From: Candidatus Nomurabacteria bacterium
GTDB taxonomy: Bacteria; Patescibacteriota; Minisyncoccia; Phycocordibacterales; UBA9973
NCBI GenBank assembly: GCA_021413905.1
Contig: JAIOPO010000004.1
Coordinates: 1,597 to 65,596, forward strand
Length of the DNA: 64,000 nucleotides
Direction: 5' to 3'
Made by a program: the position numbers and the translations under genes. This document shows positions 5,368 to 63,351 of this stretch, one piece after another; position 1 is the first letter of the stretch, and the number at the start of each line of letters is the position of its first letter. The notes under the pieces were generated by a model. The model saw only the letters and a program-made list of their open reading frames with translations. It did no database searches and had not been told where the DNA came from.

Positions 5368-6651
5368 ATGGACAGATCAAGGAAAATGATACTTTTTGCG
5401 GGTGATATATCTATGTTATATATTGCAGGCTATTTAACACTCCTTATTCGTTTTGGTATTAAACAAGCTTCTAACGAAATACCGACTCATATTTTACCTT
5501 TTATTATTTGGACAATACTATTATCTATTATTTTTTATATTTTTAATCTTTACGAAACGACATCTGTAAAATTAACTTTTAAAAACTTAAAACAATTTTT
5601 ATTTGCATTATCTACGAGCATAGTCTCAGGTATAATGTTATTTTATTTATTTCCCTTTTCCATAACTCCAAAAACAAACTTATTATTGACTCAAATATTA
5701 TTTTCCTTATTTATTTTAATTTGGCGTAGATTTTACTACAATATTTTTTCAAAAAAATTTAAAAATCAAATTGCTTTCATTGGAAAAACAACACCTGAAT
5801 CAGAAATATTAATAAAAAATATAATTGAAAATCCACATATAGGATATTCATTTATTGGAAATTTTAAAAATTTCTCAGATTTACAAACAAGTAAAATAAA
5901 AATAAATACAATAGTTTATACTGAAAAAGATAATTCTATAAATTTGGAAGAGCTAAGCAAATCAGATTATGATTATCTAAACATAACAAAAGCATTTCAA
6001 ATCATTTTAAATAAAATACCGGTCAGTCTTATGGATAACGAAATTGCTTTAAATATTTTAGAAAACAAAAAGAACATTGTTTTTAACAGTATCAAAAGAT
6101 TAACTGATATAATATTTTCAATAACAATACTTATAATCACCTTACCAGTAACCATAATAACCGCACTTTTAATATTCATAGAAGACAGAAAAAATATATT
6201 TTATAAACAAATTCGTGTTGGTTACAAGAAAAAAAAATTTAATATAATAAAATTTCGTTCAATGAATATAAATGCCGAAAAAAATGGTGCTGTTTGGGCA
6301 ATAGAAAAAGATCCACGCACAACTTTTGTCGGAAAAATAATAAGAAAATTACATATAGATGAAATACCACAAATGATAAATATACTCAAAGGAGATATTT
6401 CACTAATAGGTCCCCGACCTGAAAGACCTGAATTTGTTGAAATTCTAGAAAAAGAAATTCCTTTTTACTTTTTACGTCAAACAATAAAACCTGGTTTCAC
6501 AGGCTGGGCACAAATAAAATTTCGATATGCACGATCAGTGGTAGACAGTAGAGAAAAATTTGAATACGATTTATATTATATCAACAATTGGAATTTGTTT
6601 TTAGACTTAGGAATTTTAATAAAAACAATTCAAATAATTTTTAGTCATTAA
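5368..6651 (+). CDS. Polyprenyl-phosphate glycosyl-1-phosphate transferase (WbaP/bacterial sugar transferase family)
   Basis: The C-terminal domain is KRLTDIIFSITILIITLPV...KFRSMNINAEKNGAVWAIEKDPRTTFVGKIIRKLHIDEIPQMINILKGDISLIGPRPERPEF. This is the Bac_transf signature. Confidence 0.9.
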   Translation: MDRSRKMILFAGDISMLYIAGYLTLLIRFGIKQASNEIPTHILPFIIWTILLSIIFYIFNLYETTSVKLTFKNLKQFLFALSTSIVSGIMLFYLFPFSITPKTNLLLTQILFSLFILIWRRFYYNIFSKKFKNQIAFIGKTTPESEILIKNIIENPHIGYSFIGNFKNFSDLQTSKIKINTIVYTEKDNSINLEELSKSDYDYLNITKAFQIILNKIPVSLMDNEIALNILENKKNIVFNSIKRLTDIIFSITILIITLPVTIITALLIFIEDRKNIFYKQIRVGYKKKKFNIIKFRSMNINAEKNGAVWAIEKDPRTTFVGKIIRKLHIDEIPQMINILKGDISLIGPRPERPEFVEILEKEIPFYFLRQTIKPGFTGWAQIKFRYARSVVDSREKFEYDLYYINNWNLFLDLGILIKTIQIIFSH

Positions 6652-29985: not shown

Positions 29986-31254
29986 CTAAACTTTCAAAAA
30001 AGGCAGAAATTCTTTACTGTCATTAAATGGACCAATAAGAGCAAGATTTAATTTGTCATTTTTAAATATTTCTCTAGCCATATCACGCACTTGTTTTGGG
30101 GTCACCATCTTTATTTTTTTTGCTTTTTCTTCAGCTGATTCTATTTTCTTTAAAAGTATTTCTTGTCCTCCGTAAAAATTGGCAATATCATCTGTGGCTT
30201 CCAAACCCATTTTCATACCGGAAATAAAAATCTCTTTTACTTTATTTAATTCTTTTTCTGAAACAAGTTCATCTTTTAATTTTGAACATTCTTCCAATAT
30301 CGCAGTGATGACTTCTTTGACACGCTTATTGTCCACACCAGAAGAAATCTGAAATACTCCGTGGTCAGTATACGGGTCTGTATTTGCGCGAACATAATAA
30401 CAAACTCCCATTTCTTCGCGAAGTTTATAAAAAAGTCTGGAGCTCATCCCTGCACCCAAAACACCGGACAATACGGACAGTATTGCATTTTTTTTGTTAA
30501 AAATATCAAATGCGCGAAAACCTAAAACAAAATGTGTTTGATCTGTGGCTTTATGTTTTATTTTAATATTTGGCTTATCTTGTTTTTCAATTGTCTTTAT
30601 TTTTCCAAATTTTTTATCATTCTTTAAATCACCAAAAGCTTTTTTAATTTCCTGCATCATTTCTTTTTCAGATACTCCCCCTGCGACGACCACCGTTGTG
30701 GCTTTTGGAACATATTGTTCTTTTTTATATTTAACAAAATCATCGCGTTTCATTTTTTTAATATTCTCAATCGGACCGGCAATATTCCAACCCGCAGGCT
30801 GATCTCCATACAATACTTCCATAAGCATGTCTTGCACATGACGCATTGGTAAATCTTCATACATATTTATTTCTTCTATTATCACTCCTTTTTCTTTTTC
30901 CATTTCAGTTTCTGGAAAAGTGGAATTCAAATAAATATCAGAAACTACATCAAAAATTTTCTTGAAATGTTTCACATCACTTTTTGCATAATAACCTGTA
31001 TATTCTTGGCCGGTAAAAGCATTGTATTGCGCTCCCATAGTGTCTAACTCTGTAGAAATATCACGCGCAGTCGGACGCTTTACAGTACCCTTGAAACACA
31101 TATGTTCCAAAAAATGTGATAAACCGTTTAACTCTCGAGTCTCATATTTGGAACCTGTTTCCACCAACACCAAAGCTGTCACCGTCGGGCTTTCTTTCAT
31201 TGGTATTGTAATAACTCGTAACCCATTCTTTAAAATTGTTTTTTTAGCTTTCAT
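29986..31254 (-). CDS. M16-family zinc peptidase (insulinase/pitrilysin-like)
   Basis: It carries the inverted zinc motif HFLEHMCFKG (HxxEH) near the N-terminus. The 422-aa length is typical. Confidence 0.9.
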   Translation of the reverse strand: MKAKKTILKNGLRVITIPMKESPTVTALVLVETGSKYETRELNGLSHFLEHMCFKGTVKRPTARDISTELDTMGAQYNAFTGQEYTGYYAKSDVKHFKKIFDVVSDIYLNSTFPETEMEKEKGVIIEEINMYEDLPMRHVQDMLMEVLYGDQPAGWNIAGPIENIKKMKRDDFVKYKKEQYVPKATTVVVAGGVSEKEMMQEIKKAFGDLKNDKKFGKIKTIEKQDKPNIKIKHKATDQTHFVLGFRAFDIFNKKNAILSVLSGVLGAGMSSRLFYKLREEMGVCYYVRANTDPYTDHGVFQISSGVDNKRVKEVITAILEECSKLKDELVSEKELNKVKEIFISGMKMGLEATDDIANFYGGQEILLKKIESAEEKAKKIKMVTPKQVRDMAREIFKNDKLNLALIGPFNDSKEFLPFLKV

Positions 31255-31264
31255 GCCTTTTATA

Positions 31265-31762
31265 TTAGCACATTTTTGAAAGTGTTTCTTTTATCTCTTT
31301 ATTATTATGAACAATGAAAACTTGTTTTGTATCTTTATAGCTTTCAGCTAAGACAAGCATTTCTTTGTTTGGCCATAGGAGAATGTATTTTATTAAATCA
31401 AAACTAATCTTTTGTTTTGCTCCATCTGGTTTATCAAATGGCTTATCTGTATTAAAAATTCTTACAAAAGCTCTCCATACACATCTCCACTTTGGAAAAT
31501 CAAAAAATATAATTACATCAGCTCTTTCTAATCTACTAGGAAGAGTTTTTTTATAATTACCATCAATAATCCATTTGTCTTGTTTTACAAATGGCTCTAC
31601 TGCATTTTTAAATTCCATTTTTGTGGAATATACTTCTTTCCAGTCTTTAGTCCAGTACAATTTATCAAGATGCACCACTGGTAAATCTAATTTCTTTCCA
31701 AGCTCATTTGCCAATGTAGACTTCCCTGATCCAGATACTCCAAAAATAGTTATTCGATCCAT
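31265..31762 (-). CDS. P-loop NMP-kinase-like protein (adenylate kinase / topology-modulation FlaR-like family)
   Basis: It has Walker A (IFGVSGSGKSTLA) and a length of about 165 aa. Confidence 0.65.
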   Translation of the reverse strand: MDRITIFGVSGSGKSTLANELGKKLDLPVVHLDKLYWTKDWKEVYSTKMEFKNAVEPFVKQDKWIIDGNYKKTLPSRLERADVIIFFDFPKWRCVWRAFVRIFNTDKPFDKPDGAKQKISFDLIKYILLWPNKEMLVLAESYKDTKQVFIVHNNKEIKETLSKMC

Positions 31763-31795
31763 AAAATTATTCTATCACAGAATTCCAATAACTCA

Positions 31796-31815
31796 ATCTA
31801 CGCCATGGCGTAGAT
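31796..31815. repeat. Perfect 20-bp palindrome ATCTACGCCATGGCGTAGAT (copy 1)
   Basis: The sequence is self-complementary as read. It lies between the Cas2-like gene stop (31823) and the kinase-like gene promoter. Confidence 0.9.
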
Positions 31816-31822
31816 ATAAAAT

Positions 31823-32200
31823 CTACATACTACTCTTTTTTGTATCATAAGGTTTAGCTAATTTAAAAGTTTTAAAGTTATCCCCTATTTTTATTTCTTT
31901 CAAATAGCTCGTAAAATCTTTCGGTAAGGGTGAAGGTCCTACCCAAACACTTTTTTGAATCATTACATAACCGAACTTAATTAAATGCCTACGAAACCAA
32001 TCGCGTTCTTTCTTTTGCTCACTAGGAATGTCGTACATGATGATTAAATTTTTTACAGAATCTTTTTGAAAAGGTGACAAAAAAGAGCCAAGATAAAGCC
32101 GCTTTGGATTTTTTATTATTGAATTTTTCTTTTCGCTAATTAAAATGGGTAAACCAAAAGAATTTACTTTTACACCTTTATAATATTTAGACATGAACAT
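31823..32200 (-). CDS. Small Cas2-like / PaaX-central-domain-like protein (orphan)
   Basis: The segment NLIIMYDIPSEQKKERDWFRRHLIKFGYVMIQKSVWVG follows the Cas2 ferredoxin-fold pattern (hydrophobic-YDI ... helix ... G-x-x-x-Q-x-SV). The window holds no CRISPR array and no other cas gene. The start may be the second ATG (32194). Confidence 0.4.
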   Translation of the reverse strand: MFMSKYYKGVKVNSFGLPILISEKKNSIIKNPKRLYLGSFLSPFQKDSVKNLIIMYDIPSEQKKERDWFRRHLIKFGYVMIQKSVWVGPSPLPKDFTSYLKEIKIGDNFKTFKLAKPYDTKKSSM

Positions 32201-32218
32201 ATTATACCACCAAAATTC

Positions 32219-32238
32219 ATCTACGCCATGGCTGAGAT
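32219..32238. repeat. Near-identical copy of the 20-bp palindrome (ATCTACGCCATGGCTGAGAT; GT to TG swap)
   Basis: Direct comparison with 31796-31815. This copy sits immediately upstream of the extended -10 (TGGTATAAT, 32209-32201) of the Cas2-like gene. Confidence 0.85.
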
Positions 32239-32288
32239 GTAAGAAAAGTTATTCTTTCTATTCGAAATAAAAGCTTTTAGTTGATTAT

Positions 32289-32933
32289 TTAATAACTAAA
32301 GTCTTGTATCTTTAAAAATACAAGATTATCTTTTTTATTATCGTCATAAAAACCATTTATAAATTTCTCGAAAACATCCCATTCTTTATGGTATCCATAA
32401 ATAAATTTATTATATTGTTTTAAATATTTTGGCAAAAATTTCATAAACGCAAATTCAGAAAGAATATAATGAGTTCCAATTTGAATATCACTTAATTCAA
32501 TACTTTTCTTTTTAAAAGGATTTTCTATCAAAACATTTTTTGTTGCTTGATTTATATCTTTTTCAAAGTCTTTATTTGTAAAATATAAATTTTTAACGTA
32601 ATTATATTCTTTTTTATAATCATTATTATTTTCAATATTTTCTTTTTGCCAATCAAAAACTAGAATATGACTTTCATTAAGATTTTGATTTTTAATAGAT
32701 CTTTTTACTCTATTTTTAAAATTATTACCTTGAGGAATTGCTTTTTTACCACGTGCAATATTTTCTGAATAACCAAGAGCTAGGTATGTTGAAATTGCTG
32801 GAACATCTGGAATAAATATTCCTAAATTTAAATACTCATCTGAATATTTTTTTAATATCCTATCAATAACCTCTTGTTTAAAGTAGCCATTACCAGGACT
32901 CATCCCTATAACTAAAAAATCTTCTACGTTCAT
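32289..32933 (-). CDS. tRNA-dependent cyclodipeptide synthase (CDPS), NYH-type
   Basis: FLVIGMSPGNGYF matches the CDPS catalytic-Ser motif (G-[IM]-S-P-x-N-x-[YF]-F). HYILSEFAFM matches the Y-x-x-x-E motif. YGYHKEW matches the Y-H pair of the NYH subfamily. The roughly 215-aa length is typical. Confidence 0.8.
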   Translation of the reverse strand: MNVEDFLVIGMSPGNGYFKQEVIDRILKKYSDEYLNLGIFIPDVPAISTYLALGYSENIARGKKAIPQGNNFKNRVKRSIKNQNLNESHILVFDWQKENIENNNDYKKEYNYVKNLYFTNKDFEKDINQATKNVLIENPFKKKSIELSDIQIGTHYILSEFAFMKFLPKYLKQYNKFIYGYHKEWDVFEKFINGFYDDNKKDNLVFLKIQDFSY

Positions 32934-32935
32934 TT

Positions 32936-34264
32936 CTAATTCAATTTATTTTTTATATAAGAAATTAATTCAGAAATTTTTATTCTTTCTTGGTTTCCGG
33001 TATCTCGATCGCGGATAGTCACAGTATCCAAAAGCTCTGGATTTTCACCAAGGGTGTCGAAGTCGATGACGATGCACCACGGCGTGCCGATTTCGTCTTG
33101 TCGGCGATAACGCTTGCCGATGTTGCCATTGTCATCCCAAGCCACACGGCCGAATTCTTTTTTTAACATAGAAAATACTTCCCTACTTTTTGATACTAAT
33201 TCTGGTTTATTTTTCAACAGTGGAGACACAGCACAAAGCACAGGGGCAATTTGTGGACGAAGTTTTAAATATATACGAACTTCTCCACCCATTTCATCTT
33301 CAGTATATGCAGATAATAATATAGCTAATAATGCCCTCTCTACACCAAATGAAGGCTCTATCACATGTGGAGTAATCTTTTCGCTGTTCTCCTCGTCTAC
33401 ATATTCAAGCTTGTGTATCTTCAAATCAAAATCTCCTCGATATGCAAGACCGAAAAGCTCTTTTCGGCCAAAAGGATAATCAAACTCAAAATCTACTGTG
33501 CGTTTTGAGTAGTGTGCCAAATCTTCTGATACTACTTCAAGCTCGTGTACTTTATTCATATCAATACCCACGCTACTCATCCATAAATGCATTTCATTTT
33601 TCAATTCATTAAAAGCATTTTCCCAATTATTTTCTCGTACAAAATATTCTATTTCCATTTGCTCAAATTCACGAGAACGAAAAATAAAATCTCTGGGTGT
33701 AATTTCATTTCTAAAAGCTTTACCAATTTGAGCAATACCAAATGGAATCTTTGGATGATGTGTGTCCACAATGTTTTTAAAATTCACAAATATTCCTTGT
33801 GCAGTCTCTGGGCGAAGATATGAAATAGCAGAGGAATCTTCTGAGGCTCCCACTTTTGTTTGAAACATCATATTGAATTGGCGAGCTTCCCCTAGTTTGC
33901 CTCCACAATCAGCACAATTATTTTTATCTTCAATTTGATCTATTCGAAAACGATGCTGACATTTTTCACATTCTACCATTGGATCTGCAAAATGCTCCGC
34001 ATGTCCGGTAGCTTGCCACACTTCTTGACGCATCAAGATTGCAGCACGAATACCATACATATCTTCACGATTAGAAACAAATTTTTCCCACCAAGAATTT
34101 TTTATATTATTTAAAATTTCATTTCCAAAATGCCCATAATCCCAAGTGCCCGCAAATCCCCCGTAAATTTCAGAACCCGGAAAAATAAAACCGCGTCTCT
34201 TACAAAGACTCACTATTTTTTCCATTAACTCACTTTCTTCTTTTTTATTTTCTTTATTAGACAT
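32936..34264 (-). CDS. glyQS: Glycyl-tRNA synthetase (class II, homodimeric GlyQS type)
   Basis: Supporting segments are RRGFIFPGSEIYGGFAGTWDYG, the class II motifs (FRNEITPR, GVERALLAIL) and the C-terminal anticodon-binding domain. Confidence 0.95.
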   Translation of the reverse strand: MSNKENKKEESELMEKIVSLCKRRGFIFPGSEIYGGFAGTWDYGHFGNEILNNIKNSWWEKFVSNREDMYGIRAAILMRQEVWQATGHAEHFADPMVECEKCQHRFRIDQIEDKNNCADCGGKLGEARQFNMMFQTKVGASEDSSAISYLRPETAQGIFVNFKNIVDTHHPKIPFGIAQIGKAFRNEITPRDFIFRSREFEQMEIEYFVRENNWENAFNELKNEMHLWMSSVGIDMNKVHELEVVSEDLAHYSKRTVDFEFDYPFGRKELFGLAYRGDFDLKIHKLEYVDEENSEKITPHVIEPSFGVERALLAILLSAYTEDEMGGEVRIYLKLRPQIAPVLCAVSPLLKNKPELVSKSREVFSMLKKEFGRVAWDDNGNIGKRYRRQDEIGTPWCIVIDFDTLGENPELLDTVTIRDRDTGNQERIKISELISYIKNKLN

Positions 34265-36864: not shown

Positions 36865-39800
36865 TTATTCTATCACAACCTTAAATACCAATTCGTTGAT
36901 TTTTATTTCATTGCCGTCATTTTTTGTAAAATCAATTTGTTTAACGCCGACAATCTTCAAAAATTCATCTTTGAATTTATTTATTATTTCTTTGCCTTTT
37001 TCATCAGTATCAATTTTCAACACTATCAAATCACTAGGCATCAAACCTTTTGTTTTCCGCATATCTTGCACAGCTCGCACTAGCTCGCGATAATTGCCTT
37101 CTATTTTTAATTCTGGTGTGATTTCTGTATCTAATTTTATAACATCTTCTACATTTTCAGATTTAATAAATTCAACATTTTTTATATTCAATTCTTCTTT
37201 TAGAATCTCTATATAATTTATATTAAATTCATGATAAAAAATTTGAATATTACTCAAAGGCTGTCTTACGGGAATTCCTGATTTTTGTCTTTCTTTTAAA
37301 CCAGATGAAACAATTTCTCTGACTTGTTTCATATTTTCTAAAATTTCATCATTAAAATTTAAAATATTTACTTCCGGCCATTCTGCCAAATGTACAGATT
37401 CTACATCATTTTTATTTTTTAATTTTTGCCAAATATCTTCGGACGCAAAAGGCGCAAATGGGGCCATAATTTTCACTAAATTTTTCAACACAAAATACAG
37501 AGTTTGTTTTGCTTCGATATCTCCATTTTTAATTCTCTCTCTTGAACGACGCAAATACCAAGTAGAAAGATCATCGATAAAATCACGAACAGCACGCACT
37601 GGTTCCAATGTTCTATAATTGTCTAAATTATCTGTTACAGTTTTATTCAATTCATTTAAACGCGCCAAAATCCATTGATCTAAAATATTTTCAGATTTTA
37701 ATTCTGTGAATACTTCTAATTGTGGATCTCTATAGAGTTCATAAAAAGCGACGACGTTATAAAGCAAACCAAAAAATTGACGATGAATTTCCATGACAGT
37801 TCTCTCATCAAAATTCTTTGATTCACCCGGTTGATTTACGGAATACATCCAAAGACGAATAGTGTCCGCGCCATATTTTTCAAACATAAGCCAAGGGTCC
37901 ACGACATTTCCTTTTGACTTTGACATTTTTTGTCCATTTGCGTCTAAGATATGCCCCAAACAAACGACATTTTTATAAGCATTACCAGGTTCATCAGAAA
38001 GTAAATTTATAACTGCATGCAAAGTATAAAACCATCCGCGAGTCTGATCTATCGCTTCAGAAATATAATCCGCTTTTATCGGATTAAAATCAATCTCTTT
38101 ACCCAGAATATGATTTTGAGCATAAGGCATAGCCCCAGAATCAAACCACACATCCATCACTTCTCCCGTGCGAATCATTTTTTGACCATTATCTTCCAAA
38201 ACTATCTCATCAATATATGGCTTATGAAAATCCAATTCGTAATTTGCATTATGAGGTAATGGCACAAAATCTAATTCCTTGATTTCAGCATTTTGAAAAA
38301 AATGAAAATCTTTTTTATCTAAAATCATTTTTAATGTTTCTTTTACATTTTTTCCTTCAATACCTGCACACAACAACCAAGCAGGACCACCATGAGTCAC
38401 AAATAAAATATTTTTGTCTTTGTATTTTTCTTCAACATCATACAAAAATGCTGTCATACGATTTTTCACATCTTGATATGATTCATCATCCTCTACATGC
38501 AAATTAAAATTTGCTTCCGTTTTTATGTGATATTTATGATATTCTTCCCAATTCTTTCCATCAAAAGAATACGCTCCTATTTCTCGCAGTCTTTCATCTT
38601 TGATAATATTTTCTTTATTCAATCCCAATTTTTGAGCGACGATTTCCGCAGTTTCAATAGTACGAGTAAAATCAGAAGTAAATATCAAATCAATTTTTTT
38701 ATCTTTCAGAAATTCTGCGGAAATTTCCACTTGCTCTTTACCGTCTTTATCTAAATGCCATTTACCTGAAGGTTGTGTGCAAATTATATTTTTTTTATTT
38801 GCTTCTGTTTCTCCATGTCTCATTACAAAATATTTATTGCCTGATTTTTTAGTATATTTTTTCAAATCAGCCAAAGAACCGACAACTTTATAAGAGCCAT
38901 CTTCTTTTTGCCAAACAGGTATCGGTGTACCCCAATATCTATCTCTGGATATAGCCCAATCTTTTATACCATCAAGCCATTCACCAAAACGTCCTTTTTT
39001 AATATATTCCGGCTCCCAATTTATTTTTTCATTTCCTGCGAGCAATTGTTCGCGAAGCGCACTCATGCGGAAATACCAAGAAGAACGTGCGTAATAAATG
39101 AGCGGTGTATCACAACGCCAACAATGCGGATAGCTATGCATATAATTTTCTTTTTTAAACAAAAGACTTCGTTCTGTTAAATGATTTATTATATCCACAG
39201 CCAAAGTAGGTTTACCGTTCTCATCTGTTTCTTTTACATATCTACCTGCTAAGAAATCCGTACCGATGACGAATTTTCCTTCTTCATTTACTGTATGATA
39301 TTTAGGCAAACCGACTTTTGTACCAAGCTCAAAATCATCTGCTCCATACATAACAGCGGTATGCACTATACCCGTACCGTCAGTAGTCGTAACAAAATCC
39401 GCTCCGTAAATTTTAAAAGCATTTTTTATTTTTTCATCATCTTTAGCCAAATCTTTTAAATATGGGAACAATGGTTCGTATTCCATACCAATCATTTCAC
39501 TGCCTTTATGTTCAGCAATAATTTCATACGGCTGATTTAATATTTCCAATCTTTCTTTTGCCAACACTAAAATCTCATCACCGACTTTTGCCTCAACGTA
39601 AATAAAATCATTACCAACTGCAAGTCCGACATTTCCCGGTAAAGTCCAAGGCGTTGTCGTCCATGCCAAAAAATATGCGTGATCGAAATTTTTAATTTTA
39701 AATTTTATATATACGGACAAATCTTTCACATCCTTATATGCTCCCGGTTGTGAGAGTTCATGACTTGAGAGGGCCGTACCACAACGTGTACACCAAGGCA

Positions 39801-40344
39801 AAACCTTAAAATCTTTATATAAAAATCCTCTATCATTTATTTTCTTTACAACACCCCACAATGCTTCTATATAACTGTTTTCATATGTCACATATGGATT
39901 TTCTTGGTCAATCCAATAACCCATTCTTTCTGTAAATTTATTCCAAAATTCCAAATATTCCCAAACATTCTCTTTACACTTTTGATTAAAAAGTTTTACA
40001 CCATAATTTTCTATTTCTTTTTTTGATTTTAAACCAAGAGCTTTTTCCACAGCCAATTCAACAGGCAAACCATGTGTATCCCAACCCCCTTTTCTACCAA
40101 CATGAAAACCTTGCATTGTTTTGTAACGAGGAACAACATCTTTGAAAGAACGAGCTTCTAAATGATGAATACCTGGTTTACCATTTGCTGTCGGTGGTCC
40201 TTCATAAAAAATATAATCTCCTTTTGGATTATCTTTTCGATTTATCGTCTTTTCAAAAATTTTATTTTCTTTCCAGAATTCTAAAACTTTTTCCTCACGC
40301 AAAGCTGTCTCACTTTTTGTAATATTTTCTTTATTTTCAGACAT
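36865..40344 (-). CDS. ileS: Isoleucyl-tRNA synthetase (type 2) carrying an inserted histidine-phosphatase (PGAM-like) domain
   Basis: IleRS features are the HIGH region (PPTANGKPGIHHLEA), the editing-domain motif WTTTPWTLP, DVWFDSG and KMSKS. Between PIPVW and DFHKPYID there is a segment of about 190 aa with RHGETEAN, FTSDFTRTIETA, REIGAYSFDG and VTHGG. Confidence 0.95.
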   Translation of the reverse strand: MSENKENITKSETALREEKVLEFWKENKIFEKTINRKDNPKGDYIFYEGPPTANGKPGIHHLEARSFKDVVPRYKTMQGFHVGRKGGWDTHGLPVELAVEKALGLKSKKEIENYGVKLFNQKCKENVWEYLEFWNKFTERMGYWIDQENPYVTYENSYIEALWGVVKKINDRGFLYKDFKVLPWCTRCGTALSSHELSQPGAYKDVKDLSVYIKFKIKNFDHAYFLAWTTTPWTLPGNVGLAVGNDFIYVEAKVGDEILVLAKERLEILNQPYEIIAEHKGSEMIGMEYEPLFPYLKDLAKDDEKIKNAFKIYGADFVTTTDGTGIVHTAVMYGADDFELGTKVGLPKYHTVNEEGKFVIGTDFLAGRYVKETDENGKPTLAVDIINHLTERSLLFKKENYMHSYPHCWRCDTPLIYYARSSWYFRMSALREQLLAGNEKINWEPEYIKKGRFGEWLDGIKDWAISRDRYWGTPIPVWQKEDGSYKVVGSLADLKKYTKKSGNKYFVMRHGETEANKKNIICTQPSGKWHLDKDGKEQVEISAEFLKDKKIDLIFTSDFTRTIETAEIVAQKLGLNKENIIKDERLREIGAYSFDGKNWEEYHKYHIKTEANFNLHVEDDESYQDVKNRMTAFLYDVEEKYKDKNILFVTHGGPAWLLCAGIEGKNVKETLKMILDKKDFHFFQNAEIKELDFVPLPHNANYELDFHKPYIDEIVLEDNGQKMIRTGEVMDVWFDSGAMPYAQNHILGKEIDFNPIKADYISEAIDQTRGWFYTLHAVINLLSDEPGNAYKNVVCLGHILDANGQKMSKSKGNVVDPWLMFEKYGADTIRLWMYSVNQPGESKNFDERTVMEIHRQFFGLLYNVVAFYELYRDPQLEVFTELKSENILDQWILARLNELNKTVTDNLDNYRTLEPVRAVRDFIDDLSTWYLRRSRERIKNGDIEAKQTLYFVLKNLVKIMAPFAPFASEDIWQKLKNKNDVESVHLAEWPEVNILNFNDEILENMKQVREIVSSGLKERQKSGIPVRQPLSNIQIFYHEFNINYIEILKEELNIKNVEFIKSENVEDVIKLDTEITPELKIEGNYRELVRAVQDMRKTKGLMPSDLIVLKIDTDEKGKEIINKFKDEFLKIVGVKQIDFTKNDGNEIKINELVFKVVIE
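38266..38835 (-). other. Histidine phosphatase superfamily (branch 1) domain embedded in ileS
   Basis: My hand mapping places the RHG codons at 38820-38812. The domain ends at ...KELDF (38266). Confidence 0.75.
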
Positions 40345-46588: not shown

Positions 46589-47458
46589 TTATTTTAAAAA
46601 AGAAAAATTAAAAGTTTTTCCGTTTGATTTCATCACTATTGTGCCTAATAAATCAGTACGAAAAACCTTTGCTTTAAACTGATTTAGAATATCCAGAGTT
46701 TCCTTGTGCGGATGTCCGTATTTATTATTTTTACCATCTGAAATCATCGCATATATAGGAGAAACAGCCTGCATAAATTCAGGTGAAGTGGAGGTATGCG
46801 AACCGTGATGCCCGACTTTTAAAATCGTCGATTTTAAAAGTCGGGCATCATTTTCCTTTAACACTATCCTCTCCGTCAATTTTGTCGCATCCCCCGTCAA
46901 CATCACCGAAGTTTCTCCGTACGACAAACGCGCAATCACCGATCCATCATTCGTCTCCCAGTTCGCAACATCTCTATCCGGAAATAAAATATCAATTACT
47001 GCTCCGCCACCAAGATTCAACCTCATTCCCTTTTTTACTAAAATGTCCGGAATATTTTGCCTTTTTATTTCTGCTTCTAAATTCTTATAAGTTTTCGAAT
47101 TATTAAATGTTCCCGGCTCAAAAACTTTTCCTACTTTATAATTTTTCAAAATATCTAAAAATCCTGCAATGTGATCTGCATCCGGATTAGTGATAACAAT
47201 AGCATCTATTTTTTTATCATATATCGGCATCACTTGAGAAAGCGGACTTAAAACTTTATGTGCTAGACCTGCATCAAACATCACCTGCACCCCAGCCGGC
47301 GATTCTATAAAAAGCCCGTCCCCTTGCCCGATATCAAGCATAGCAAAAGTCAGACCACGATGAACATTTTGTCTGTCTAAAGAAAAAATATAAATATTTA
47401 CACCTAAAAGCATCACTGCAAGAATCAACAAATAGTATTTTTTGCAATTTTCAAACAT
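46589..47458 (-). CDS. Membrane-anchored MBL-fold hydrolase (ComEC C-terminal beta-lactamase-like domain encoded as a separate gene)
   Basis: An N-terminal TM helix is followed by FAMLDIGQGDGLFIESPAG...VITNPDADHIAG...KVGHHGS. Confidence 0.8.
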   Translation of the reverse strand: MFENCKKYYLLILAVMLLGVNIYIFSLDRQNVHRGLTFAMLDIGQGDGLFIESPAGVQVMFDAGLAHKVLSPLSQVMPIYDKKIDAIVITNPDADHIAGFLDILKNYKVGKVFEPGTFNNSKTYKNLEAEIKRQNIPDILVKKGMRLNLGGGAVIDILFPDRDVANWETNDGSVIARLSYGETSVMLTGDATKLTERIVLKENDARLLKSTILKVGHHGSHTSTSPEFMQAVSPIYAMISDGKNNKYGHPHKETLDILNQFKAKVFRTDLLGTIVMKSNGKTFNFSFLK

Positions 47459-51794: not shown

Positions 51795-52205
51795 ATGGAA
51801 GAGTGTATATTTTGTAAAATAATAAAAGGGCAAATCCCTAGCACGAAAATTTATGAGGATGATAAAACCCTCGCCTTTTTGGATATTGCGCCAGTAAACA
51901 TCGGGCACGCTTTAATAATACCTAAAGAACATTATGCAAATATATATGAAACTCCGGAAGACACTATGTCAGACATAATAAAAGTAGCTAAAAAAATATC
52001 TCTCGCTGTGAAAGAAGCAGTAAAAGCAGAAGGAGTAAATATTACAATGAACAATAACCACGCTGCCGGGCAAGTAATATTCCATTCACACATTCACGTC
52101 ATCCCCCGTTTCTCAAACGATGGCTTTGAACTCTGGCACGGTAAAAGAGCATACGAAGATGACGAAATGAAATCTGTTGCTGAAAATATTACTTCAAAGC
52201 TTTAA
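51795..52205 (+). CDS. HIT-family nucleotide hydrolase/transferase
   Basis: It has CIFCKII and the histidine triad HSHIHVIP. Confidence 0.9.
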   Translation: MEECIFCKIIKGQIPSTKIYEDDKTLAFLDIAPVNIGHALIIPKEHYANIYETPEDTMSDIIKVAKKISLAVKEAVKAEGVNITMNNNHAAGQVIFHSHIHVIPRFSNDGFELWHGKRAYEDDEMKSVAENITSKL

Positions 52206-53232
52206 TTAAATTTTTATCATTAAAAAATTTAGAAAGTTTATACCCCCTACAATGAGACAAAATTCCTAAATAAGAAAACTTTGACTCTTTGAATAAATTT
52301 TGTTTCACTTTTCGTAAAATTCTTTTTTTAGTGGAAGTTCGCAAAACTTTATAATGTGTAAGAACTACATAACCAAGAAAATCCACTCCTTGCGATACTT
52401 TTCTAATTTCAACTTTTTTGGGATGTAATTTTAATTTAAGTTTCTCTTCTAAAAATTCGGAAATTTTTGGTAAAAGTAATTCAAGAAAATATTTATCTTT
52501 TGAAACGCACACGAAATCGTCACAATATCTTGCATAATATTTTACTTTTAAAACATGTTTCATAAACTGATCAAAAACATTCATATAAACATTTGCAAAA
52601 AGTTGACTTGTCACATTACCAAGAGGAAGACCTTTGCCTTCTAATTTTTCAAAACTTTTTATAATATTTTCTAAAAGCCATTTGGTTTCCAAGCACTCAA
52701 TTTTTTCAAAAAGAATTTTCTTTAAAATTTCGTGATCTATTGAATCAAAAAATTTAGAAATATCACACTTTAATACCCAAGCATTATTTTTATAATTTTT
52801 TGTTTCTTTTCTTAAAAAACTTTCAAGACGCTCAACTCCCGCGTGAGTGCCTTTATTAAATCGGCAAGCATAAGAATCATAAATAAAAGATGGATCATAA
52901 ATTTTATAAAGTTGGCGAAAAACAGCTTGATGCACTACCCTGTCTCGAACCTGTGCTTTGTGTATATGTCTTATTTTGGGGTCGCAAACATAAAAAGGCA
53001 CATATGGCTCATTTATATATGTTTTTCTTCGTAGAGAAAAATGAATATCCAAGATATTTTTTTCTAAATTAAATTCAAATTTCTGTATATCAGTTTTTTT
53101 ATTTTTTCCACGACGAAACTCTCGCCACGCAGACAAAAGATTGGAAGTGGAAATAATATGATAGAATAAATCACTATGATGACCCCCCCACTTACTTCCA
53201 ATAAAATTATCGAGCTCCCTGTTATTCTCCAT
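52189..53232 (-). CDS. Diversity-generating retroelement reverse transcriptase
   Basis: RT motifs present include VRDRVVHQAV, SYACRFNKGTHAG and KCDISKFFDSIDH. It also has the DGR-diagnostic LPLGNVTSQLFANVY ([ILV]GxxxSQ) and YARYCDDFV (YxDD). A TR/VR pair lies adjacent. Confidence 0.9.
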   Translation of the reverse strand: MENNRELDNFIGSKWGGHHSDLFYHIISTSNLLSAWREFRRGKNKKTDIQKFEFNLEKNILDIHFSLRRKTYINEPYVPFYVCDPKIRHIHKAQVRDRVVHQAVFRQLYKIYDPSFIYDSYACRFNKGTHAGVERLESFLRKETKNYKNNAWVLKCDISKFFDSIDHEILKKILFEKIECLETKWLLENIIKSFEKLEGKGLPLGNVTSQLFANVYMNVFDQFMKHVLKVKYYARYCDDFVCVSKDKYFLELLLPKISEFLEEKLKLKLHPKKVEIRKVSQGVDFLGYVVLTHYKVLRTSTKKRILRKVKQNLFKESKFSYLGILSHCRGYKLSKFFNDKNLIKALK

Positions 53233-53562
53233 GTAAAGAGATTATATAAAATAATATATCAATTGGGAATAAAAATGCCGAAACAAAATAAATTGGGCAT
53301 ACATAAAGTGTTGGAAGAAAAAACATTACTAATACTTACTACATTAATTGATTCAGCACTTAGAAGTAGGCAAGACAAAATACAAACTCTAAATCAAGCT
53401 CGTAGAGATATTGAAGTCTTGAAACATCTTATTCGCCTAGAATATGAATTAAATATAATACAAGAGAAATCTTATATAAATTTATCAGCGATGCTTGAAA
53501 ATATCTCTATGATGACAACCGGTTGGATAAAGTCTCTCGGAACACAAAAGCCCCTCTATTGA
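53176..53562 (+). CDS. avd: Avd-like accessory variability determinant (four-helix-bundle protein)
   Basis: LYKIIYQLGIKMPKQNKLGIHKVLEEKTLLILTTLIDSA...LKHLIRLEYELNII...ISMMTTGWIKSL follows the four-helix-bundle/Avd pattern, and helix 1 needs the upstream residues. An extended -10 (TGATAGAAT, 53159-67) lies 8 nt before the ATG at 53176. The alternative start is 53275. The long form overlaps the RT 5' end by 57 nt on the opposite strand. Confidence 0.72.
   Translation: MMTPPLTSNKIIELPVILHVKRLYKIIYQLGIKMPKQNKLGIHKVLEEKTLLILTTLIDSALRSRQDKIQTLNQARRDIEVLKHLIRLEYELNIIQEKSYINLSAMLENISMMTTGWIKSLGTQKPLY
53241..53246 (-). promoter_or_regulatory. -10 box (TATAAT) 8 nt upstream of the RT start codon
   Basis: The minus strand reads ttTATAATctctttacATG. 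There is no SD, so the arrangement looks leaderless. Confidence 0.4.
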
Positions 53563-63267: not shown

Positions 63268-63285
63268 AAATAAAAAATAAAATTA

Positions 63286-63313
63286 AAATACACAGGATAT
63301 CCTGTGTATTTTA
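63286..63313 (+). terminator. Rho-independent terminator
   Basis: Hairpin ATACACAGG-atat-CCTGTGTAT followed by TTTT. Confidence 0.75.
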
Positions 63314-63351
63314 ATTTTGACAAAATGAGTCAATAAATATAATATGGAAAT

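Follow-up and report, generated by a model that had tools for sequence, protein, structure and literature searches.

When Cas1 and Cas2 form a complex, the Cas2 dimer lies along the DNA duplex. A domain that Pfam names the 'PaaX central Cas2-like domain' forms the middle of the phenylacetyl-CoA-responsive repressor PaaX, which binds the inverted-repeat operator TGATTC-N27-GAATCA and represses its own promoter (Px) by sterically hindering RNA polymerase (PMC9493321). Here we consider a 64,000-nucleotide stretch from the genome of an ultra-small bacterium of the candidate phyla radiation, a Candidatus Nomurabacteria bacterium (assembly GCA_021413905.1, contig JAIOPO010000004.1, positions 1,597 to 65,596; hereafter the window) in which a gene for a small Cas2-like protein stands between two nearly identical 20-bp palindromes, and we propose that the palindromes are probably the cognate double-stranded DNA (dsDNA) sites of the protein encoded between them. 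We were unable to find any description of this protein family or of its palindromes in a literature search.

What an earlier note on this DNA had said of the palindromes and their surroundings is borne out letter for letter: ATCTACGCCATGGCGTAGAT is a perfect 20-bp palindrome; the second copy, on the other side of the gene, differs from it solely by an adjacent GT-to-TG swap (2 mismatches); the half-site ATCTAC is present and overlaps the stop codon of the Cas2-like gene; and two extended -10 boxes, TGGTATAAT and TGATAGAAT, lie ahead of the Cas2-like gene and of the P-loop kinase-like gene that follows it (Table 1). A search for the 20-mer at up to 3 mismatches gave exactly 2 matches in the 64 kb against 0.00 expected from 100 shuffles, which excludes a chance origin of the pair, and the next best match in the window to a covariance model built from 149 related sites reached 16 bits (E > 1; the scores of the two copies are given in Table 1). 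Nor is the arrangement peculiar to the window. Of a comparison sample of 80 genome loci encoding homologs (Paceibacteria/Nomurabacteria), 79 have palindromes of this family flanking the 120-130-aa gene on either side, the exception ending at a contig edge; we refer below to the gene with its sites as a unit. Site variants in relatives are dyad-symmetric (ATATACGCCATGGCGTATAT, ATTTACGCCATGGCGTAAAT, ATGTGCGCCATGGCGCACAT, ATCTCCACCATGGTGGAGAT, AAGTTCGCCATGGCGAACTT, ATCTACGCTATAGCGTAGAT), and the 14 base pairs of the formal 'stem' covary strongly across the 149 aligned sites (342 double-change cells as against 165 ± 14 after shuffling, 0/500), values that far exceed every slid control. A scan of 820 kb of related loci with the covariance model placed the matches at units or no more than about 1.5 kb away, bar two outliers (3.6 and 4.5 kb). 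The search of genome and relatives that the earlier note had recommended thus returns two sites in the window and, in relatives, sites at or near the units, and a generic genome-wide intergenic repeat is rejected on that evidence.

What ties the palindromes to the protein is a single residue. The residue after the invariant YDIP motif, which is Ser58 in the window protein (agt, 32023-32021; Ser60 if the longer open reading frame of 125 codons is numbered), predicts the centre of the upstream site. Specifically, i) proteins with an acidic residue here (Glu/Asp) have TATA, GATA, or TATC centres in 29/29 units, whereas those with His, Ser, Phe, Ala, Lys, Gln, or Asn have a CATG centre in 49/52; ii) at half-site position 9 the acidic class shows 0 C, 50 T, and 8 G (58/58 CTATAG-type) and the non-acidic class (H/S/F/A/K/Q/N, n = 104) 101 C, 3 T, and 0 G, an association with a Fisher p of 7e-41 if phylogeny is ignored; iii) the residue class switches about 14 times on a neighbour-joining tree and does not simply set one clade against another, and the closest mixed pairs (86%, 83%, and 76% identical) each differ in both residue and centre, as in L006 (E/CTATAG) versus L004 (H/CCATGG), an example of close pairs up to 86% identical with both switched, and L076 (E/ATCTACGCTATAGCGTAGAT) versus L071 (H/ATCTACGCCATGGCGTAGAT), which is also among the closest; iv) in an independent set of longer relatives, the long forms described below, 0/73 Glu proteins have a CCATGG core, and the only two Gln proteins both have GCCATGGC upstream; and v) the rule also holds for the centre of the downstream site, in about 24/29 units of the acidic class and about 46/50 of the non-acidic. 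The window conforms, since the CCATGG centre of its upstream site agrees with Ser58 under this rule, and both of its sites are identical to the pair in the ortholog unit L167. Site positions 3/18 are in turn associated, if less strongly, with a Lys/Arg position of the N-terminal basic linker. The paired sites of one unit agree at position 3 in 78% of cases compared with 36% for random pairs, and at position 9 in 84% compared with 50%; asymmetric sites are oriented, the TCAG variant being promoter-distal 26 times and proximal 6.

The rule that links residue and centre would make chemical sense as major-groove readout of B-DNA, in which the amino group that A or C presents on the partner strand can donate a hydrogen bond to a carboxylate, and G can receive one from His, Ser, Lys, Asn, or Gln. 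Because the residue after YDIP covaries with the centre, the palindromes are putative cognate dsDNA sites of the encoded protein, and because the downstream centre follows the same residue rule, that site too is putatively bound by the same protein. We conclude, from this covariation, that the palindromes are probably bound in duplex form by the encoded protein, whose two-fold axis would coincide with the dyad and whose Cas2-like domain would itself contribute base-specific contacts.

Only the upstream site has conserved promoter geometry; the downstream copy lacks it. A TATAAT (≤1 mismatch) lies downstream of the upstream site in 76/80 units, begins 12-13 nt past the 20-mer in 70/80, and ends 6-8 nt ahead of the start codon in 60/80. 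Because the TATAAT ends so close to the start, the mRNA of the Cas2-like gene is predicted to be leaderless, which places the dyad at about -35: it lies some 35 nt before the predicted common start of transcription and translation, in a promoter without a -35 hexamer. The window dyad is about 34.5 nt ahead of the predicted start at 32194, so that the site covers the gene's own -35 region, and in long forms that carry a site the distance from dyad to ATG is for the most part 36-37 nt. Leaderless mRNAs appear usual in this genome, because Shine-Dalgarno-like motifs precede only 2/59 window genes and a TATAAT-like box stands 5-9 nt before the ATG in 25/59; throughout the window, genes that open a transcription unit seem as a rule to have leaderless mRNAs. 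The gene is indeed bracketed by the palindromes as the earlier note described it, but the 125-aa frame that it gave is probably two codons too long. The -10 hexamer, ending at 32201, directly abuts the first ATG (32200), and we take the second ATG at 32194 as the start because a site-to-start spacing of 24-27 nt is conserved in the 80 homologous loci; starting there, the spacing is 24 nt and the protein begins MSKYYKG, as in the NCBI model P0001.

By analogy with PaaX, the upstream site is most likely an autorepression operator. The mechanism that we envisage is as follows. A homodimer of the Cas2 fold, resembling the middle domain of PaaX, would seat its two-fold axis on the palindrome dyad; the loop after β1 (YDIP-Ser58) would read, in each half-site, the base pair at a distance of 2 bp from the dyad, as covariation and symmetry together indicate; and the basic N-terminal linker would probably read outer positions of the site. 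The upstream site covers about -45 to -25 of a leaderless promoter that has only a -10 box, and its occupancy would hinder RNA polymerase, so that the gene would be negatively autoregulated. The downstream site, the weakest step of the scheme, would most likely close the unit as a roadblock or a second operator. In long forms the winged helix-turn-helix (wHTH) would contact distant parts of the arms while the Cas2-like domain occupies the centre, as the widely spaced half-sites of PaaX suggest. Site, promoter, gene, and site would then make up a self-contained 443-bp module (31796-32238) that in this lineage is inherited, gained, and lost as one piece. Such a protein would resemble the controller (C) proteins in being small and dimeric, with a palindromic box over its own -35 region and predicted feedback on its own level, but would differ from them in its Cas2-like rather than HTH fold, in the additional cognate site at the gene's 3′ end, and in having no consistently linked target gene.

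The protein itself is consistent with a relationship to PaaX. PaaX_M (PF20803) is its best Pfam match (50.9 bits against a cut-off of 24), followed by CRISPR_Cas2 (31.9 bits against 23.8, with about half of the Cas2 model covered); the only other match at E ≤ 1 was FNIP, and no Y1_Tnp/HUH, transposase, or recombinase family appeared at that threshold. The public 'Cas2' annotation arises because the cut-off of TIGR01573 (cas2) is passed (31.7 bits against 24.5); the PaaX equivalog model TIGR02277 scores far below its own (19.6 bits against 264.55). A profile search of the PDB aligned the YDIP of the window protein with the FDLP/FDMP of Cas2, and sequence homology with Cas2 spans β1-α1-β2-β3, including the conserved Asp, with which Asp55 (gac, 32032-32030; Asp57 in 125-aa numbering) aligns three residues before Ser58. 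An AlphaFold 2 (AF2) model of the short form shows a ferredoxin-like β-α-β-β-α-β core at a predicted local distance difference test (pLDDT) score of 67, with residues 23-41 disordered; Foldseek with this model gave weak Cas2 matches (E ~0.3) and was uninformative. Asp55, Glu63, and Asp65 (Asp57, Glu65, and Asp67 in 125-aa numbering) are invariant in 30 aligned short-form homologs, and no His is among the invariant columns of that alignment.

The family is large. There are at least ~1800 homologs at E ≤ 1e-3 in Patescibacteria genomes and metagenomes, and an exhaustive profile search gave 1872 cluster representatives. Among the matches listed, lengths are 113-169 aa and identities 64-81%, and the label, where there is one, is Cas2 or PaaX, the named matches belonging to Nomurabacteria, Paceibacterota, or Staskawiczbacteria; among the matches seen the family is confined to Patescibacteria, and no second member was found within the 64-kb window. 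Many of the distant representatives listed are long forms of about 160 aa with an N-terminal winged helix ahead of the Cas2-like domain, so reproducing the N-terminal and middle domains of PaaX. By alignment the short form equals the long form minus helix 1, the recognition helix, and the wing, and keeps the YYKG..V..FGLP motif and the basic linker. The long-form AlphaFold model (pLDDT 91.7) has a wHTH followed by β-α-β-β-α-β, and its best Foldseek match in the PDB is E. coli PaaX (8a39, probability 0.98), ahead of wHTH regulators and Cas2. On this alignment the window protein is apparently a shortened relative of the ~160-aa forms that has lost the winged helix. Thus the label 'Cas2-like' of the earlier note holds for homology and fold (Pfam, TIGR01573, AF2), but PaaX_M is the stronger match, and the protein appears to fit the description of a PaaX-N+M-like family member without the wHTH better than that of Cas2.

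The differences from both namesakes should nevertheless be kept in view. Unlike PaaX, the window protein has no N-terminal wHTH and, in common with the rest of the family, no C-terminal effector domain (PaaX_C), ending after the middle domain; its gene has a site on either side, and the core of the sites is putatively read by the Cas2-like domain. The geometry of the upstream site and the covariation reported here favour a candidate operator overlapping the gene's own promoter, such as PaaX has. Unlike Cas2, the protein covers the Cas2 model only in part, has neither cas1 nor a CRISPR array in its window, and appears to bind in a sequence-specific manner, aimed at the palindromes around its own gene.

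The position of the downstream copy is variable in relatives, ranging from 29 nt inside the end of the reading frame to 51 nt past the stop codon. In about one third of homologs (L002, L005, L009, L014, and about 25 others) a full site overlaps the end of the frame and encodes a C-terminal ISAMA*, and in the window the half-site at the stop codon looks like a relic right half-site of such an arrangement. The earlier note had suggested a shared operator through which a dimeric regulator controls both the Cas2-like gene and the kinase-like gene. A putative operator survives from this suggestion, and covariation identifies the likely regulator as the Cas2-like protein; control of both genes, however, is not a general property, because the spacing from the downstream site to the next -10 box varies from 21 to 104 nt. 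The 21 nt that separate the site from the -10 box of the kinase-like gene (TAGAAT) are the shortest such spacing; in the window the site also borders on a weak -35-like TTGAGT, and the distance from the dyad of the site to the kinase ATG is about 43.5 nt. A general role as operator of the next gene is therefore rejected on the unconserved spacing, and the protein may influence the kinase promoter in this window, but not as a conserved feature.

Sites are also found in other arrangements. Among the metagenomic long forms, a core GCNATNGC of the GC-N-AT-N-GC type occurs, by a strict definition, at 13/71 upstream and 12/71 downstream positions, or 25 sites beside 71 genes compared with 2 sites in 316 kb elsewhere, an enrichment that is strong but not universal; the arms of these sites reach up to 22 bp and differ widely in sequence. 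In genomes with two family members each gene is flanked by its own site variant, and locus L044 (1165-3080) holds two full units about 1.1 kb apart on one contig; in one of them an Asp-type protein goes with CTATAG as the site centre, in the other a His-type protein with CCATGG. No more than about 12/80 loci have arrays of 3-4 sites, and arrays rarely exceed three. In L022, L041, L045, L059, L079, and L080 the third site brackets an extra accessory frame (site-ORF-site-gene-site, ORF being an open reading frame), among them a HAD-like ORF, a P-loop kinase, and others of unknown function, and some extra sites stand only 8-15 nt ahead of the downstream ATG. In L078 a third perfect copy (6062-6081) lies inside the Cas2-like ORF, in frame, within the linker where long forms hold the winged helix.

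Taken as a whole, the reading that the palindromes are cognate dsDNA sites of the wHTH-less Cas2-fold protein that they flank, with the upstream site as autorepression operator, has in our estimate a probability of roughly 0.65. We wish to stress the considerations that weigh against it: i) we know of no characterised precedent for sequence-specific reading by a Cas2 fold, and the window protein has no wHTH; ii) the case for recognition comes from covariation, followed on a rough tree that was built by neighbour joining from a short protein; iii) nothing in the operator model explains a second site at the stop codon, the spacing of that site to the next promoter is not conserved, and helical phasing between the sites was not seen across 81 inter-site distances (378-496 bp; Rayleigh p 0.07-0.64), which leaves DNA looping without support; iv) dyad symmetry often extends 4-6 bp beyond the 20-mer in non-conserved sequence, with arms of up to 22 bp in long forms, and a simple dimer operator does not require such extended arms; v) the regulator would control only itself, because there are no further sites in 64 kb of genome; and vi) the invariance of Asp55, Glu63, and Asp65, the first corresponding to the Cas2 Asp, leaves room for catalysis rather than mere binding.

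This last point leads to a different explanation, which we think unlikely: the palindromes could be substrates whose centre the Cas2-like dimer nicks or cuts, or at which it promotes recombination, site-gene-site being a minimal mobile or self-excising cassette with analogies to REP-RAYT elements, IS200/IS605 ends, integron attC sites, or a lox-flanked gene. The Asp and Glu residues homologous to the Cas2 metal site are invariant; arm symmetry reaches past the conserved core; extra sites at times bracket an additional accessory ORF, and one copy lies within the L078 ORF; the boundaries of the module are sharp at the sites, its presence varies among relatives, and it occupies many different housekeeping contexts, including rpsG/fusA. 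In L167, a more distant genome, the unit lies in the same interval (M16 peptidase 63% and Cas2-like protein 81% identical) between different neighbours, a 122-aa ORF upstream and MazEF and a 128-aa ORF downstream, and similarity to the window around the unit stops at the outer edges of both sites. In L162, L164, and L165, where the M16 peptidase is 87% identical, the Cas2-like gene and both sites are missing: L165 has glycyl-tRNA synthetase (GlyRS), 5 nt, the kinase gene, and M16, whereas a 143-aa ORF takes the place of the unit in L162 and a NUDIX gene and a reverse-transcriptase-like gene do so in L164. Because three close relatives are without gene and sites alike, the module is gained or lost as a unit, which is also the outcome of the synteny comparison that the earlier note had called for.

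Much else is difficult to reconcile with a mobile cassette. The empty loci hold no palindrome, target site, or single-site scar, although recombination between the two copies would be expected to leave such a scar; copy number is low, paralogs are divergent, and no identical copies occur in one genome. Contexts recur over deep lineages (rpsL-rpsG-unit-fusA; nusB-rnc-smc-unit; ftsW-folD-unit-PAP2-secDF; lemA-htpX-unit-gatCAB; dut-argS-pif1-unit), the unit usually being co-directional with its neighbours while small adjoining ORFs often differ between the 80 loci, and within conserved contexts the protein diverges about as much as its neighbours FolD, SMC, and GatA. No homologs were found in IMG/VR, among INPHARED phages, or among PLSDB plasmids, and a phage or plasmid origin therefore has no support. 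Because divergence is housekeeping-like and the viral, phage, and plasmid collections hold none, inheritance appears to be mostly vertical with occasional loss or relocation. Low copy number, conserved contexts, and housekeeping-like divergence give no sign of active transposition. Of the second reading in the earlier note, a small inserted cassette, there thus remains a discrete unit whose homology ends at its sites and which three relatives lack, with no sign of active mobility.

The analogies themselves are also partial. Like REP-RAYT and IS200-IS605 elements, the unit places the gene for a small α/β-sandwich (ferredoxin-fold) protein between conserved palindromes with covarying stems; unlike them, it encodes no Y1_Tnp/HUH domain, nor any transposase or recombinase family recognised by Pfam, its palindromes are undispersed (two in 64 kb) and carry no strand-specific signature, and its contexts are conserved with seemingly vertical inheritance. 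Like integron attC sites, the palindromes are imperfect and bound ORFs, with occasional site-ORF-site-ORF-site arrays, an ATG 8-15 nt after the site, and variable adjoining cargo; unlike attC arrays, these rarely have more than three sites, the gene comes with a promoter of its own, empty loci retain no site, and a sequence core is conserved rather than structure alone. No integrase stands among the window proteins listed, although no search was aimed at integrases in the loci. As for VapD/Cas2-like toxins, which have an antitoxin partner beside them, the neighbours of the unit change from one locus to another among the 80, although no search was aimed at antitoxins. The more specific proposal that the dimer both reads and cuts or nicks the palindrome, with its invariant Asp pair on the dyad beside the specificity residue, as a self-mobilising or self-excising cassette, seems to us quite improbable; if it were true, this would be a living Cas2-fold protein that natively recognises palindromic repeats around its own gene, of the kind that could be postulated as a repeat-recognising ancestor of the CRISPR adaptation module.

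Unlikely too, if closer in kind to an operator, is an architectural or boundary role in which the protein and its paired sites act on the neighbouring housekeeping operons, rather than on the protein's own level, as an insulator, a topological barrier, or a pair of roadblocks at operon junctions. Such a role would accommodate the presence of sites at either end of the unit, the housekeeping-like conservation of the protein, its recurrence at junctions of core operons (rpsG/fusA, smc, folD/secDF, htpX/gatCAB), and the separate site variant that each member of a two-member genome has. It sits less well with the lack of phasing across inter-site distances of 378-496 bp, the unconserved spacing from the downstream site to the next gene, and the close relatives that manage without the module at this locus. 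The proposal overlaps with that of a self-regulating DNA-binding protein and is inseparable from it in silico.

We consider it very unlikely that the palindromes act as RNA hairpins that insulate the gene's transcript, whether by terminating, processing, or stabilising it, and that the Cas2-like protein might cleave or bind as an RNase. Some Cas2 and VapD proteins have been reported as RNases, the covariation of the stem is significant (342 against 165 ± 14), the downstream copy folds at -11.7 kcal/mol (z = -2.4), and those extra sites that lie 8-15 nt before a downstream ATG are placed as intercistronic hairpins would be. But the upstream site falls outside the gene's own transcript because it is upstream of the conserved -10 box; the upstream window copy has no folding advantage over shuffled sequence (z = -0.95), and the stem is not extended in either copy; mismatches show no G·U enrichment and no strand bias (13 sense wobbles, 9 antisense equivalents, and 35 other mismatches); and the bases at ±2 would fall in a tetraloop where only one of them is readable in a given way, a poor fit to a two-fold-symmetric rule. 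A canonical Rho-independent terminator is rejected, as no consistent T-run (U-tract in the RNA) follows the stems and the window's own terminators differ, consisting of an A-tract, a stem, and a T-tract. A scan of 31000-33000 against Rfam 15 gave no match at E ≤ 1. Finally, that the palindromes are operators of an unlinked regulator or a generic intergenic repeat, incidental in position, is hardly credible: the window protein does lack a classical DNA-binding domain, but the link between site and gene family is exclusive in the 64 kb and 820 kb scanned, a residue of the Cas2-like protein itself covaries with the site, and shuffles exclude chance.

Table 1. Features of the Cas2-like locus and its neighbours, in window positions
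Feature	Positions	Strand	Remarks
P-loop kinase-like gene, 165 aa	31265..31762	-	best match 'DNA topology modulation protein' PRK08118; outside the conserved module
Extended -10 box TGATAGAAT of the P-loop kinase-like gene	31769..31777	-	ends 6 nt before ATG 31762; predicted leaderless
Downstream candidate cognate site	31796..31815		perfect palindrome ATCTACGCCATGGCGTAGAT; begins 7 nt past the stop codon; 37.1 bits
Half-site ATCTAC (GTAGAT on gene strand)	31821..31826		last codon, stop codon, and following AT (ATG TAG AT)
PaaX_M/Cas2-like protein gene, 123 aa	31823..32194	-	Pfam PaaX_M 1.6e-13, CRISPR_Cas2 1.5e-7; mechanical ORF starts at 32200 (125 aa)
Extended -10 box TGGTATAAT of the Cas2-like gene	32201..32209	-	ends 6 nt before ATG 32194
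Upstream candidate cognate site	32219..32238		ATCTCAGCCATGGCGTAGAT on gene strand; CA variant in promoter-distal half; 38.5 bits
Cyclodipeptide synthase (CDPS) gene	32289..32933	-	Pfam CDPS 2.1e-21; TIGR04539 3e-29

The interval between GlyRS and the M16 peptidase (31265-34264 in the window) is a variable islet in this lineage, judging from L162, L164, L165, and L167. The gene for the tRNA-dependent CDPS that precedes the module is accessory, being absent at the locus in all four, and CDPS and module together make up a segment of about 1.17 kb that is extra relative to L165, between GlyRS and the kinase gene. The start of the CDPS gene overlaps the stop of the glycyl-tRNA synthetase gene (32936-34264, minus strand) as ATGA, which suggests translational coupling of an accessory CDPS to an aminoacyl-tRNA synthetase. 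On the other side of the module, the kinase-like protein matches PRK08118 in NCBIfam at 1.2e-43 but under the cut-off; its ortholog in L165 is 67% identical and there follows GlyRS after 5 nt without a promoter, whereas the kinase-like gene in the window has gained its own predicted leaderless promoter.

As the earlier note held, the Cas2-like protein stands, as far as the window shows, outside any CRISPR context: no multi-copy direct-repeat array was found in the 64-kb window, nor any convincing cas gene, and the genes called beside the homologs in three loci (L001, L167, and L170) are housekeeping or accessory. The sole match to a Cas1 model among the PADLOC families shown is a protein with RVT_1 only, 20 kb from the Cas2-like gene. 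This is a stand-alone reverse transcriptase (RT) of 347 aa (52189-53232, minus strand; Pfam RVT_1 1.9e-25; PADLOC RT/DRT models), and its match to 'Cas1_IIIb' (3.7e-38) presumably arises via the RT part of RT-Cas1 fusions; with small divergent ORFs beside it (51795-52205 and 53176-53562, both plus strand), it could be a retron- or DRT-like defence gene. Elsewhere in the window, a 40-bp perfect palindrome (AAAATTAAAATACACAGGATATCCTGTGTATTTTAATTTT, 63279-63318) is intergenic and unrelated to the 20-mer (16 bits with the covariance model); a perfect inverted repeat (46806-46850; arms of 22 nt, spacer of 1 nt) lies inside an ORF of the metallo-beta-lactamase fold (46589-47458, minus strand), which is unusual for coding sequence; and the 1159-aa isoleucyl-tRNA synthetase (36865-40344, minus strand) carries a histidine-phosphatase (His_Phos_1) domain between its tRNA-synt_1 matches.

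Proteins of this kind that are named 'CRISPR-associated endonuclease Cas2' or 'PaaX' would thus be neither, but members of a distinct family with its own putative DNA sites, and because the family has at least ~1800 members, of which those named carry 'Cas2' or 'PaaX', counts of CRISPR components in Patescibacteria genomes are probably inflated. We rate the family, from its sequences, as a putative PaaX-like autoregulator reduced to a DNA-reading Cas2 fold. If so, it would supply a compact module of operator, leaderless promoter with only a -10 box, gene, and second operator in organisms in which almost no regulation is understood, and a small orthogonal set of protein/site pairs. It also offers a testable recognition code, in which, at ±2 bp from the dyad, Ser or His would read G:C and Glu or Asp would read A:T or C:G; such a code would mean that a Cas2 fold can read dsDNA without a helix-turn-helix, and would bear on the middle domain of PaaX and on how Cas2 dimers engage DNA.

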